The notes: generated from the sequence alone by a model not told the origin. A stretch of 64,000 bases of DNA from an uncultured Verrucomicrobiae bacterium (GCA_963731265.1 CAVSUE010000001.1:736001-800000), one strand, 5' to 3'; positions 18,673 to 63,776 are shown, counted from the stretch's first letter. Made by a program: numbers and translations.

Positions 18673-18850
18673 CTAGTGCCCCGTTTCAAAAATTTTTGAG
18701 ATAATTTCTAGCGTGAAAGCTCGCTAGAATCGACGACCGCAGGCTTCGCAAGTTGATCCGTATTAATTCAATACGGATCAACTTGCGATCGTCGATTATA
18801 TCGGCTTTGACGCAGAAATTATTCCAAAAATTTTTGAAACGGGGCACTAG
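18673..18850. repeat. Palindromic MITE-like element (family A)
   Basis: Perfect 26-bp TIR CTAGTGCCCCGTTTCAAAAATTTTTG; perfect central stem GCAAGTTGATCCGTATT/AATACGGATCAACTTGC. Confidence 0.85.
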
Positions 18851-18915
18851 GTTTTCTCAATTTTGAATTATGACAATAGGGATTTCCCTTTTTGGGCAAA
18901 ATGTAAAGAATTTTT

Positions 18916-20178
18916 TTGACCCATATACTTCCTCTTGTTTATACATGGCATATTGAGCTGAAGTCAAAGGAGCGGATTTTGCGGGGAATTTTTTTTCATT
19001 TTGCAGCGATGACGTCTTTGACGTGCTACTCGCTGCTATCCACGGAAAAGGAAGTCGCGTTGTTAATTCAAGACGAGGTGCTGACGCGTGCGGACAACCT
19101 ACCTATCGAGACCTTTGAGGAGGCTTCAGACACCTACCTAGAGGGCTACATCCAGGCTTTGATCGACGTGCACTATTACGAACATCAAGTGGCCGTGATC
19201 GTCAAAGACCACAGGGTGCTCCTCGCCAACTTGCCGCACAACGATCTGCTCGCCAAGAGTATTATCGCATTCGTCAAAGACCTGCCTGGGGTGACGACGG
19301 TCGAGGTGGTCGATGTTTCGAAGGAAGAGCTGGAGCAGCATAAGCTATACGTGGAACCGCCCCGGGTCGGAGGGATCTGGTTCCCGCAGTCCACGGTCTT
19401 GTTTGCACCTCTTGTGGCCGATCCGCGCCAACCCACGAATTCTGCAGCAGTTCGTTTTGGCGATAAGGTCTGCGGCGATATCTGCGCGGCTGTTTCTTTG
19501 GGCGACGACTTTCCGCTTTTTCGGTGGCTCGACGTTTTTCACTGGCAAGGCGATCTCCAGATCGGCATTGAGGCAGGGATTTGGGCGGTCTTCAACTTTA
19601 AGAGTATCCCGCATCGAAAAAGACACGAGACGTGTGAGCTTGTGAATGCTGACTTTTTGGTGGGGATTCCTCTGACTTATGCGGCAGACAGGTGGTCCTT
19701 CCGCCTGCGTGCGTATCACATTTCATCGCATCTCGGCGATGAGTTTTTGTGCAACCACCGCTACTGCAAGCACCGGAAGAATCCGAGCATGGAAGCCCTC
19801 GACTTCTTCACTTCGTATCAATTTTCGAGCCATTTGCGAGGCTATTTTGGCCCGGGAGTGGTTTTCCATAGCGACCCTTCGTTTAAGATTAAGCCACTCT
19901 ATGTGGAGTATGGGGCTGAACTGAGGATCTTGGGATCGAAGTTTATATACCAAAGGGTCTATGGGACCCCCTTTTTTGCTCTGCATATCGAGAATTGGCA
20001 GCAGCGGGGCTGGGACTTTGATTTCACTGCTAAATTGGGGTATGAGATCAGCAAACTTCAAGGCATCGGCCGAAAAATGCGGGTCTACGTCGATTATCAC
20101 CATGGCTTTTCATACGAAGGGCAATTCTTCAACAAACGCACCCAATACGGCGAATTCGGCTTTTCCTGGGGATTTTAA
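18916..20178 (+). CDS. DUF1207-like chlamydial protein (probable outer-membrane barrel)
   Basis: LFAPLVADPRQP, LVNADF, YHISSHLGDEF, GFSYEGQF; start uncertain. Confidence 0.75.
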   Translation: MTHILPLVYTWHIELKSKERILRGIFFHFAAMTSLTCYSLLSTEKEVALLIQDEVLTRADNLPIETFEEASDTYLEGYIQALIDVHYYEHQVAVIVKDHRVLLANLPHNDLLAKSIIAFVKDLPGVTTVEVVDVSKEELEQHKLYVEPPRVGGIWFPQSTVLFAPLVADPRQPTNSAAVRFGDKVCGDICAAVSLGDDFPLFRWLDVFHWQGDLQIGIEAGIWAVFNFKSIPHRKRHETCELVNADFLVGIPLTYAADRWSFRLRAYHISSHLGDEFLCNHRYCKHRKNPSMEALDFFTSYQFSSHLRGYFGPGVVFHSDPSFKIKPLYVEYGAELRILGSKFIYQRVYGTPFFALHIENWQQRGWDFDFTAKLGYEISKLQGIGRKMRVYVDYHHGFSYEGQFFNKRTQYGEFGFSWGF

Positions 20179-20258
20179 TTATTTAAATAAGTTTTACTAA
20201 TTTTATTTAATTAAAAGTTGTGTTATTCTTTTAATTATAATTAAAAATTGGTGAAAAC

Positions 20259-61294: not shown

Positions 61295-63213
61295 TCATCG
61301 ACGTTAAAAAATACCTCATCCTCGGCGCCAAAGAAGATATCGACCGGTTCTTTGCCCGTGCCCAGCATCAAGGAATCATCGAATTCATCGCACCGCATGG
61401 CAAAAAAGCGGTCGAGGTCCCCATCGAAATCCAGCATTTGCTTAACGCCATGCGGATTCTGCGCAAGCTGCCCGTTAAAAAGCCCTATGAAAAAGGGGGG
61501 AATCTCGCCTATGCCGATGAAACGGCCCAAAGGATCCTCGATCTAAAAGCGGAAGTGGAAAAACTTTCCGAAGAAAAACGTCTTTTGGAATCGGAAATCA
61601 TCCGCGTAGCTCCATTTGGCGATTTTTCACTCGAAGATATCGACTTCATCGAAAAAAAAGGGAAGCGCGAGGTCCAGTTCTTTTGCATGAAGACGGACAA
61701 AGCCCATACTGCCAATATCAGCGACGATCTCATTTACATCGGTAGCGATTACGATCTGGATTACTTCATCGCCATCAATAAAGAACGGCGCAGCTATCCC
61801 GATATGATCGAAATGCGTATTGACCGGCCTCTGGGCGAGCTTCAGACGCATCTCGTCTTTGTTAAAGAGTCTTTACATCAATTGGAAGCTGAACTCAAAG
61901 GGTATGCCGGCCATCTCGACTTTTTGCAAGAAGCCCTCGTGGAGCGCCTCAACAACTTTAACCTCCTTGCCGCCAAGAAAGAAGTCGTCTACCCTTTTGA
62001 AAATTCCCTCTTTGCCATCGAAGCTTGGGTCCCTGCCAACAAAACAGCCATCCTCTTCTCGATCATCGACGGAATGGCCATCCATTGTGAACCGATTCTC
62101 ATCGAAGAAGGCGACCGTGTGCCCACCTACATGGAAAATAAAGGGGTTCGGCGCATTGGCGAAGATTTAGTGAAAATCTACGACATTCCCGCGACCACCG
62201 ACCGCGATCCCTCCGGCTGGGTCTTTTGGTTTTTCGCTTTGTTTTTTGCGATGATCGTCGCCGACGGCGGCTATGGACTCATGTACCTTGGCCTTTGCCT
62301 TTATTTAAAATTCAAATTTCGGAACCTCCAAGGCAGTGCCAAACGGTTTTTGAACCTGGCGACCATCCTCGCCTCTTCCTGCATCGTTTGGGGCATATTG
62401 ACATCCGCATTTTTCGGTATCCAGATCAGTCCGAAAAGTTGGCTGGGCAAACTTTCCATCATGCAATACCTTGCCGTTAAAAAGGCCGACTACCACATCG
62501 CACACCATGACGACGTCTATCAATTTTGGGTGTCGAAGTACTCGGGCCTCTCCCAAGTTCAAACAGGACAAGAATTTATAGATGCGGCGGTCAACCCGAA
62601 AGGCCAATACGAGGTGTTGGACTCCTTTACCGACAGCATCCTGTTAGAATTTTCCCTCTTGATCGGGGTCATCCACATTTCCCTTGGTTTACTACGGTAT
62701 TTATGGCGGAATTGGTCAGGGATCGGATGGGTGGCATTCATGGCCGGAGCCTACATGTATTTCCCTTTGACCCTCAAGGCTACGTCCCTGATCCATTTCA
62801 TGGGCCTCGTTGATAAGCCGACAGGGGTGGCGATCGGCCTCCAGATGATCTATACGGGCATCGCCGTCGCCATCGTTTTAGCCCTCATACAAAAAAGGCT
62901 TAAGGGGATCGGCGAAATCGCCACCCTCATTCAAGTCTTTGCAGACGTTCTTTCCTATTTGCGTCTTTACGCCTTAGGCCTTGCCGGGGCCATCATGGCG
63001 AAAACTTTCAACGACATCGGTCAAAATGTCGGACTTTTCCTTGGAGTCCTTGTCATCTTGGTGGGCCACAGCGTCAACGTGATGCTGGGAATTATGGCCG
63101 GAATGATACATGGGCTTCGTCTTAATTTCATAGAATGGTATCATTATTGTTTCGATGGAGGGGGTCGCCTCTTCCATCCGCTAATTCGTTTAAAAGCAAA
63201 AGAACATATTTAA
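61291..63213 (+). CDS. atpI: V/A-type ATP synthase subunit I
   Basis: FFAMIVADGGYG, DVLSYLRLYALGLA, IHGLRLNFIEW. Confidence 0.95.
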   Translation: MIIDVKKYLILGAKEDIDRFFARAQHQGIIEFIAPHGKKAVEVPIEIQHLLNAMRILRKLPVKKPYEKGGNLAYADETAQRILDLKAEVEKLSEEKRLLESEIIRVAPFGDFSLEDIDFIEKKGKREVQFFCMKTDKAHTANISDDLIYIGSDYDLDYFIAINKERRSYPDMIEMRIDRPLGELQTHLVFVKESLHQLEAELKGYAGHLDFLQEALVERLNNFNLLAAKKEVVYPFENSLFAIEAWVPANKTAILFSIIDGMAIHCEPILIEEGDRVPTYMENKGVRRIGEDLVKIYDIPATTDRDPSGWVFWFFALFFAMIVADGGYGLMYLGLCLYLKFKFRNLQGSAKRFLNLATILASSCIVWGILTSAFFGIQISPKSWLGKLSIMQYLAVKKADYHIAHHDDVYQFWVSKYSGLSQVQTGQEFIDAAVNPKGQYEVLDSFTDSILLEFSLLIGVIHISLGLLRYLWRNWSGIGWVAFMAGAYMYFPLTLKATSLIHFMGLVDKPTGVAIGLQMIYTGIAVAIVLALIQKRLKGIGEIATLIQVFADVLSYLRLYALGLAGAIMAKTFNDIGQNVGLFLGVLVILVGHSVNVMLGIMAGMIHGLRLNFIEWYHYCFDGGGRLFHPLIRLKAKEHI

Positions 63214-63242
63214 AATTAGATTATTAATGGAGTGGTTTAATT

Positions 63243-63665
63243 ATGGATTTTAGTATGATTGGCCCTGCCCTCGTTTTGGGGCTAGGTTGCGTGGGGAGTT
63301 CCATCGGCTGCGGCATCAGCGGGATGGCCTCTCACGCTGTGATGAGCCGAACCGATGAAAACCATGGAAAATTCATCGGCATGTCCGCCGTTTCTTCCTC
63401 TCAAGCGATTTTTGGTTTTGTCCTCATGCTTTTGATGAAGAACAGCATCAAAGCGGGCACTCTTTCACCGCTATCCGGCATCGGCATCGGTTTTTCCGTC
63501 GGGCTCGCCTTTCTCCTCTCTTCCATTTATCAAGGGAAATGCGCCGCGTCAGGGATTTACGCTGCAGCAAAACAACCCGCTATCATTGGCAAATGCTTCG
63601 CCGCCCTCGGCATCGTTGAGTCGTTCTCACTCTTTGCTTTTGTGTTTGCCTTGCTTTTGATCTAA
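63243..63665 (+). CDS. atpK: V/A-type ATP synthase subunit K (proteolipid)
   Basis: GSSIGCGI.G, SSQAIFG, GIVESFSLFA. Confidence 0.93.
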   Translation: MDFSMIGPALVLGLGCVGSSIGCGISGMASHAVMSRTDENHGKFIGMSAVSSSQAIFGFVLMLLMKNSIKAGTLSPLSGIGIGFSVGLAFLLSSIYQGKCAASGIYAAAKQPAIIGKCFAALGIVESFSLFAFVFALLLI

Positions 63666-63776
63666 GTCTGTTGAGCCGATTTTCGAATTCTTTTTCCGGA
63701 GGTTGTATCAACTTGCGTATACTACCCCCGCAAAAAGAATCGAAAAGCGGCCAAAATAATCCAAAAACTCGACGAA
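63666..63776. repeat. Partial family-D element after atpK
   Basis: 29-bp ATCGAAAAGCGGCCAAAATAATCCAAAAA identical to 60613-60641; TTGAGCCGATTTT left arm shared. Confidence 0.8.

Follow-up and report, generated by a model that had tools for sequence, protein, structure and literature searches.

Evidence for exchange of insertion sequence ends over conserved hairpin cores in miniature inverted-repeat transposable elements of a chlamydial genome

The window analysed here is a stretch of 64,000 nucleotides (positions 736001-800000 of contig C1) from a 2.34-Mb genome, G000, which is assembled in two contigs and is 96% complete. Its gene junctions carry short palindromic elements which are, to judge from their sequences, MITEs (miniature inverted-repeat transposable elements) of known insertion sequence (IS) families and not a new transposition system. 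We consider it likely that these gene-less hairpins are moved by IS5, IS630, IS4 and IS982 transposases and that one and the same core acquired many end pairs through copying from arm to arm. The exchange of ends over conserved cores, which is unusual, is well supported. The first-pass annotation had proposed a possibly undescribed system of non-autonomous mobile DNA in a chlamydial genome, with reassorting termini and cores. The host and the non-autonomous nature were supported: the window holds a chlamydial V-ATPase operon (its B, D and K subunits either pass chlamydial-type models or come close to doing so), and the nearest family-named records are Rhabdochlamydiaceae (the depositors' label on the two closest is uncultured Verrucomicrobiae). 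Reassortment was borne out by end counts over one core, by the core tree and by core likeness across families. Novelty was not: both the ends and the target duplications can be assigned to known DDE families (IS5 subgroups, IS630, IS4 and IS982), of which relatives contain autonomous members with the same ends.

End exchange was followed over the core of family D (families are designated by letters), which is the 128-bp core of the window elements at 60503 and 63666 and is present in 11 of 19 genomes of the genus. A total of 103 D copies was gathered from G000, from the loci of a genus survey, from 40 stretches chosen from that survey's listed rows and from a few other sources. After removal of the 39 copies without two matching ends, the remaining 64 could be grouped into 19 end clusters; over 17 bases, agreement between their two arms is 91.6%. 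End changes occur on both arms together: among pairs with cores at least 93% identical, 22 of 88 differ at 5 or more of the 17 end positions on both arms, and the extreme pairs show 8 end changes at 96.1% core identity and 10 at 94.5%. The entropy is 1.25 bits in the ends versus 0.24 in the outer core. On the core tree, five end labels covering 44 of the 64 rows need 12 changes (minimum 4), and a single-clade origin was rejected for two of the four end types tested (p 0.030 and 0.013). A relic target duplication at the junction of end and core was considered and rejected because the triplets found there by eye are inverted, not direct.

Cores are also shared between families and end classes. 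Identical end motifs precede the cores C, D, L and M. When 190 core pairs were compared with the maximum of 60 shuffled and hairpin controls, H-M, A-R, B-G-E, G-P, L-M and F-S-V exceeded the control maximum. A short F copy with TA|TAC ends matches an IS4-ended S copy at 76 of 96 positions (score 87.7, maximum of 300 null scores 44.3); four other F copies reach scores of 49-71 against S, one of them not above its null. The core of an IS982-ended element from G017, one of three tested, is most like core C (score 52, maximum of 500 null scores 35). Within G000, 314 of 355 end matches lead to their own core, 33 to nothing recognised and 8 to a foreign family. These eight comprise six nested insertions and two fusions in which an end is joined, on one side only, to a foreign core (C1:716482 and C1:1739034): in one, a family J tip bears an IS5-type end, and in the other the left end of a C core is formed by a collapsed element of IS630 type. 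Such fusions are the expected first step of end exchange.

The pairing of the two arms was analysed in an alignment of 45 D copies (44 of 51 locus-based copies and the window copy). Of the 49 core pairs, 23 have changed on both sides; pairing holds in 97.6% of cells, a control value inflated by kinship. G-T and A-C mismatches are equally frequent (25 and 26), so a process at the DNA level fits better than one acting on a single RNA strand. The central tip is inverted in 23 of the 103 copies, forward in 60 and unclear in 20. At locus L117 (G092) the copy is a perfect palindrome, its right arm being an exact copy of the left, and its end is identical at 17 of 17 positions to an IS5 end in G068; symmetry is at least 98% in 4 of the 103 copies (median 88%). 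A 50-bp palindrome resembles, at 31 of 34 positions, one IS end folded back on itself. Replication template switching, which is known across hairpins from quasi-palindrome mutagenesis, leaves perfect palindromes and inverted centres as its marks. The inverted tips and the symmetrised copy suggest arm-to-arm copying as the likely mechanism of concerted end change. DNA bending as a general function of the cores was discarded, phased A-tracts being present in only 3 of 18 families (p 0.017 for C and 0.007 for D and I, without correction); in those three it stays a candidate.

As the first-pass annotation had stated, no transposase lies in the window: five transposase Pfam models and one IS5 model, searched in G000, gave zero matches there. 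G000 does contain IS630, IS4, IS200/IS605 and decayed IS5 elements, all outside the window, as are elements that look IS3-like and IS607-like (the latter in about 8 copies with genes of 204 and 509 aa, for example C1:41582-43795 and 1178637-1186995). The family A end agrees at 21 of 31 positions with the resident IS630 end and a sister end variant at 25 of 31. D copies agree with three IS5-family ends, apart from those of G004 matched by 60503 and 54935, at 15, 16 and 17 of 17 positions, family S with an IS4 end at 17 of 20 and family I with an IS982 end at 16 of 20. On the strength of these matches the element ends belong to known families, and the transposases of those families probably move them; the IS5 subgroups matched are presumably of the IS1031/IS427 and ISL2 types. 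An end beginning AGACC is present in 30 of 301 genomes of the order and bounds, on metagenome contigs, elements of 860-910 bp with HTH_Tnp_4 and DDE_Tnp_4 genes, which we assign, as an assumption, to the ISL2 subgroup of IS5. Neither 26 open reading frames at 30 order-wide loci nor 6 at 11 viral loci contained a transposase for this end. In further bacterial families of the order it is highly abundant (75 matches in G226, 34 in G195 and 28 in G213), on several different cores that include D-like and C-like ones.

No partner was found for family J, and no IS982 transposase in G000. The ends of the elements at 49819 and 57095 reach at best 10-12 of 17 among the few IS ends compared. IS1595 was rejected as a partner for the S/Q ends (0 of 19 genomes), IS4 proving to be the partner; IS1182 was rejected for family J and the AGACC end, as the four loci found in 3 of 46 genomes have mismatched ends.

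Much of this variety could also have arisen in ordinary MITE lineages, if ends drifted by point mutation, were corrected between the arms and, under selection by related transposases, converged stepwise on IS ends, with no exchange of blocks. Several results speak in this direction and against the exchange of IS ends. The IS5-type end variants form a continuum and end types are clustered on the core tree, the 12 changes comparing with 24.8 after shuffling. For the other two types tested a single-clade origin was not rejected (p 0.11 and 0.20). Divergence in the ends rises with divergence in the core (rho 0.26); together these observations mean that much of the variation is inherited drift. The tree itself rests on 127 hairpin columns of recombining sequences. 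Compensatory block changes occur inside the core too. By eye, none of the D copies listed has two intact ends of different D types, and a strict pattern detected a second end in direct tandem at 0 of 220 ends. As to partners, the 96% complete genome yielded no IS5 element that is intact and has matching ends, 14 of the 19 D end types reach at best 10-13 of 17 among 12 IS ends (one later 15 of 17), and the IS630 label of family F rests on the TA duplication and the TAC start, not on a partner match. Finally, one internal loop recurs in 76 of 91 D copies, as does one bulge in 84 of 100; arm copying should erase such asymmetries, so that selection must be assumed in addition, our guess being selection against perfect hairpins or for a shaped substrate. 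What drift accommodates poorly are the abrupt end differences, at 8-10 of 17 positions, between cores that share 94-96% identity, the identities of 17/17 to 21/22 with specific IS ends, and homologous cores under the ends of different IS families with different target duplications. We consider drift without block exchange unlikely. By eye, one possible case of tandem ends was noticed, at L217.

It is more improbable still that the cores derive from autonomous elements with long hairpin ends, the MITEs being deletion products and the capture of a transposase gene between two MITEs moving the cores from family to family. The locus that suggests it is L172:1065-2229 in G017, present in three copies, where an IS982 transposase gene lies between two related MITE-like hairpins, 74% alike and eroded at their inner ends; a solo MITE in the same genome corresponds to the right hairpin with a complete end. 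At this G017 locus a transposase may have been captured by two MITEs, or a MITE may have split off from an IS. Its hairpin is, however, not one of the window cores and has 0 matches in G000. Likeness to IS ends stops after about 17-30 bases, and none of the 32 ends of 16 other autonomous elements continues into any core. An interior homologous to a parent IS, as defines type I MITEs, was seen in this single G017 case.

The window elements are mobile, and most of their sites are empty in close relatives. Empty-site joints were taken from contigs of close relatives in four sequencing runs from four studies. The intervals 57094-57427, 60508-60664, 63666-63794 and 55354-55516 are skipped in all four runs, and 49817-49980, 52882-53203 and 54930-55031 in three. 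Orthologous loci agree with these joints, and some of the same junctions are occupied there by other families. Target duplications in the window are TA (18676, 57172), TTA/TAA (54935, 57095) and AT with one change (49819). Among D copies, five end types have 3-bp duplications (8/10, 5/5, 4/4, 6/11 and 3/7 copies) and another a 2-bp duplication (7/12). In G013, L132:1342-2286, an IS630 transposase gene is interrupted twice by the same family E MITE, TA being duplicated each time. An IS4 element that has inserted between two MITEs (G000:C1:935265-936750) is accompanied by a 9-bp duplication, and elements often insert on each other's ends, thereby rebuilding the target. Within the window, TAA stop codons are the location of 54935, 57095 and 63666. 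Genome-wide, 11 of 22 IS5-type elements with a clean triplet duplication lie on a stop codon, compared with 7% of non-coding TAA/TTA sites. Such placement probably reflects target preference together with the survival of harmless insertions.

The same placement, between co-transcribed genes and on stop codons, along with strong covariation and conserved bulges, would also suit structured RNA signals (attenuators or RNase III sites) that the host keeps at operon junctions and that are mobile in appearance only. We regard this as very improbable: sites are empty in close relatives, Rfam gave zero matches to any element, G-U is not favoured over A-C on either strand, and promoter-like sites are at chance level (19 versus 20.0 expected). 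Terminator-like sites number 30 in the elements versus 21.9 expected.

A REPIN/RAYT-like or other HUH-driven repeat system, which the long hairpins, the two Y1 transposase genes of G000 and the hairpins of family K outside the window might recall, can practically be dismissed, because the window elements have terminal inverted repeats and 2-3 bp duplications matching DDE elements, and one Y1 gene adjoins a TnpB-like gene, the two Y1 loci having nearly identical starts and a hairpin end in common. By context, these two loci look IS200/IS605-like. A REPIN/RAYT-like origin of the window elements, an analogy drawn in the first-pass annotation, is already largely refuted by the end and duplication data. 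Family K itself (about 115 bp, about 49 loci, zero in the window; e.g. G000:C1:927789-927905 and L001:11760-11876) has IS200/IS605-like hairpins without inverted ends, and many of its copies end GGAGG...ATGAA exactly on start codons, including those of a Y1 transposase gene and, in L001, of atpB.

Our preferred explanation, MITE hairpins served by IS transposases, would work as follows. Partner IS transposases would mobilise the MITEs in trans. A new or altered end would arise on one arm of the hairpin, nesting followed by deletion being one conceivable source of a foreign end, and would then be copied to the other arm, possibly by template switching across the hairpin. A variant that fits an available transposase would spread, and insertions at stop codons and gene junctions would survive as they leave genes intact. 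It is possible, though we put this forward tentatively, that the hairpin cores of Chlamydiales go further and act as a long-lived chassis independent of any one transposase, which adopts passing IS ends, copies them to the other arm by template switching, keeps its bulges and, in some families, phased A-tracts as features of a good substrate, spreads from species to species, and can recapture a transposase gene and so become autonomous again.

The inventory was established with 23 families seeded from genome copies, 22 of which were used in profile searches; these profiles were adopted in place of a generic end-motif scan of the genome, which was too noisy. In G000 they define 359 merged loci covering 49,070 bp (2% of the genome), 67 of which hold more than one family, and each window family has 8-58 loci. 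The density attributed to the window is genome-wide, since its 10 profile-detected loci are close to the mean of 10.2 per 64 kb (31 windows on C1). The sequences described were found at all 12 coordinates listed in the first-pass annotation. Multiple copies in G000 were confirmed for 11 of the 12 elements, the exception being 53041-53192, with no further copy in G000 or in five genus-mates. Folding into hairpins held for 11 of 13 pieces (z -3.7 to -16.6 against 60 dinucleotide shuffles) and failed for the half element at 50785 (-1.6) and for 53041 (-0.7). The list of separate elements needed correction: 57172, which is nested in the 57095 tip, is an element of its own; 48133 and 50800 are pieces of members of the 52888 family (an inner fragment and a right half, respectively); and 55357-55517 and a fragment near 55558-55607 had been overlooked. 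Elements in the window measure 115-323 bp and have terminal inverted repeats, which are lost or eroded in 36163, 48100, 50785 (one end) and 63666. When full-length, elements of families unrelated to each other tend to measure about 157-186 bp, which possibly reflects a length optimum for bringing the ends together.

The modules described earlier were found again. Arms common to 49819, 54935 and 57095 gave motif matches at 49844, 54961 and 57391 and at 49935 and 55006; with the nested element set aside, 49819 and 57095 are identical at 118 of 158 positions and differ mostly in their ends. The GAACCT start is common to 60503 and 49819, whose cores are unrelated, and ATCAACTTGCG occurs three times in families A and D (18747, 18777 and 63707; 0.03 expected).

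Strands are given for the individual elements where one was assigned. At 18676..18847 lies a family A MITE of 172 bp with IS630-type ends, TA duplicated inside CTAG and a tip that contains ATCAACTTGCG twice. It has the lowest fold z-score (-16.6); the family has 22 loci in G000 by profile search, and related copies occur in 16 of 41 genomes, G000 counted. The orthologous gap in G002 is about one element length shorter, in a noisy alignment. Between nusG and rplK, element V (36163..36393; 24 loci in the profile search of G000) has arms of the F/S/Q core group (core similarity z 8.9 to F and 7.3 to S) and eroded ends like the S/Q IS4-type end; the tracing to IS4 was done for S/Q, and V's own end was likened to it by eye. 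The site is empty in G002 and holds a short collapsed remnant in G003. A family B inner fragment without ends (48100..48199, plus strand; profile match to model positions 46-166) lies in a region, 48062-48791, that two of the four runs skip. The adjoining stretch 48200-48790 is non-coding, single-copy and mostly skipped in two of the four runs.

The element at 49819..49980 (minus strand) has a family C core with GAACCT ends of the IS5, 2-bp AT target type, and interrupts an ATGA stop/start overlap between the genes of an ABC ATPase and its permease, its first two bases completing the TGA stop. An empty ATGA is found in L001, L010, L069 and L003. Three of the four runs skip 164 bases (162 + 2); the fourth keeps the element, the contig in question differing at 7 of 1753 bases. 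Its end agrees at just 10-11 of 17 positions with the one IS5 end compared. The right half of a family B MITE follows at 50785..50885 (plus), its IS630-type TA|TAC end agreeing at 17 of 23 positions with an IS630 end in G002, and a family B MITE with a deleted tip at 52886..53043 (minus; 51 loci in G000 by profile search). The latter site is empty in L001 and L069 and occupied by another MITE family in L010. The single-copy piece with TATACC...GGTAT ends at 53041..53192 falls inside the stretch skipped in relatives (52882-53203) and is probably an old decayed MITE.

At 54935..55049 (plus) a C-type core with deleted centre and GAGACTGTT ends (IS5, TWA target, TTA duplicated) sits on the TAA stop of the open reading frame 55050-55493 (minus). 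Its left end is identical at 18 of 20 positions to the right end of an IS5 remnant in G004, and its site is empty in L001 as well as in three of the four runs. A family H MITE with TA flanks (55357..55517; 15 loci in G000; 163 bases skipped in all four runs) has a core homologous to that of family M (z 16.0), which has IS5 ends; no partner for H was found among the IS ends compared. A short collapsed remnant resembling 60503 lies at 55558..55607, forming direct repeat D19 with 60635-60671; 46 bases are skipped there in three of the four runs.

The element at 57095..57417 (plus) combines a family C core with G(A/G)GT(C/G)TGTT ends (IS5, TWA target, TAA duplicated) on the stop codon of the gene preceding atpA; five orthologous loci and all four runs have the empty site. 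Nested at a TA in its tip, with TA duplicated, is a family E MITE with IS630-type TA|TAC ends (57172..57330, plus; 29 loci in G000) that agree at 16-17 of 24 positions with an IS630 end in G016. Between atpB and atpD, 60503..60671 (minus) has a family D core and GAACCTATCCGAAT ends (IS5). The final four codons of atpB and its stop are provided by this element, whose tip is inverted relative to most copies and which has no clean target duplication. The right end is identical at 21 of 22 positions to the right end of an IS5 in G004, and the site is empty at five orthologous loci and in all four runs. A further family D core (39 loci in the profile search of G000), with both ends lost or eroded, lies at 63666..63791 (minus) directly after the stop codon of V-ATPase subunit K; here 129 bases are replaced by 17-18 others in all four runs.

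Transfer of elements between species is likely, to judge from sequence identities. The D consensus of G000 is identical at 150 of 150 positions to a copy in G002, a genome with 87% identity to the window over nusG-rplK. Compared with the respective G000 consensus, identity is 96.5% for a K copy in L001 and 93.7% for an I copy in L010; four-fold sites of atpB differ from G000 at 46% (L001) and 55% (L010). Sharing of MITEs within a genus has been reported (PMC11602168).

Besides the elements, the window contains nusG-rplK, genes of the size of rpoBC and the V-ATPase operon. Rfam models match only a thiamine pyrophosphate (TPP) riboswitch (7116-7209, minus) and three transfer RNAs. A direct repeat of 62 bp, 90% identical and spaced 800 bp, lies at 27619-27680 and 28419-28480. 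G000 also encodes big families of repeated-domain proteins with F-box-like starts.

Compared with the IS5, IS630, IS4 and IS982 elements, the MITEs have the same ends and target duplications and lack the transposase gene. As described in part of PMC10969869, bacterial type II MITEs (Correia, ERIC, RUP, QMITE) are likewise shorter than 500 bp, with terminal inverted repeats, target duplications and stem-loops, IS likeness confined to the ends, mutual nesting and mostly intergenic positions; their ends, however, are conserved and their interiors decay, whereas here the core is conserved and the ends vary. The same text describes Rickettsia palindromic elements as palindromes of about 150 bp in many families and an intracellular host, as here, but often in-frame within genes. 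In the window, copies lie between genes or on stop codons, 60503 alone adding four codons, and the analogy proposed earlier does not extend to in-frame inserts. The IS982-derived MITE of Cardinium (PMC9769881), kept mobile by an IS982 partner in an intracellular symbiont, is comparable to family I. MITE cores from different bacteria are described in part of PMC3184786 as showing no similarity, unlike the cores found here, which are common to several end types and IS families. Conserved interiors combined with variable ends have their nearest precedent in the coral CMITEs (Wang et al. 2010, PMC2872659), whose interiors are more conserved between families than their terminal repeats and for which cross-mobilisation by several related transposons was proposed. 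They are eukaryotic, of piggyBac type only and have a CC(C/T)T end motif, whereas the ends here are of bacterial IS types; the available portion of that paper gives no matching of end variants to autonomous elements, crossing of transposon families or evidence of arm copying, all of which are presented here. Our literature search, with subscription journals and the supplement of PMC11602168 outside its scope, returned no paper on MITEs of Chlamydiota and none on end exchange in bacterial MITEs. MITEs and miniature or palindromic elements are unmentioned in PMC2878342 and PMC9723776, as are chlamydiae in the main text of PMC11602168, whose supplement lists 1.4 million MITEs and may include these sequences.

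The transposon families themselves are known; the partner matching, the end-exchange counts and the evidence for arm copying are new here. The set bears on the origin of MITEs without an IS-like interior, which is discussed as unresolved in the relevant parts of PMC3184786 and PMC2872659, and on how such elements outlive their partner transposase. The elements offer a panel, assembled by nature, for transposase end specificities, and the question of MITE origin becomes testable on a single 128-bp core that occurs with 19 natural end pairs, several of them matched to named transposase genes of relatives.

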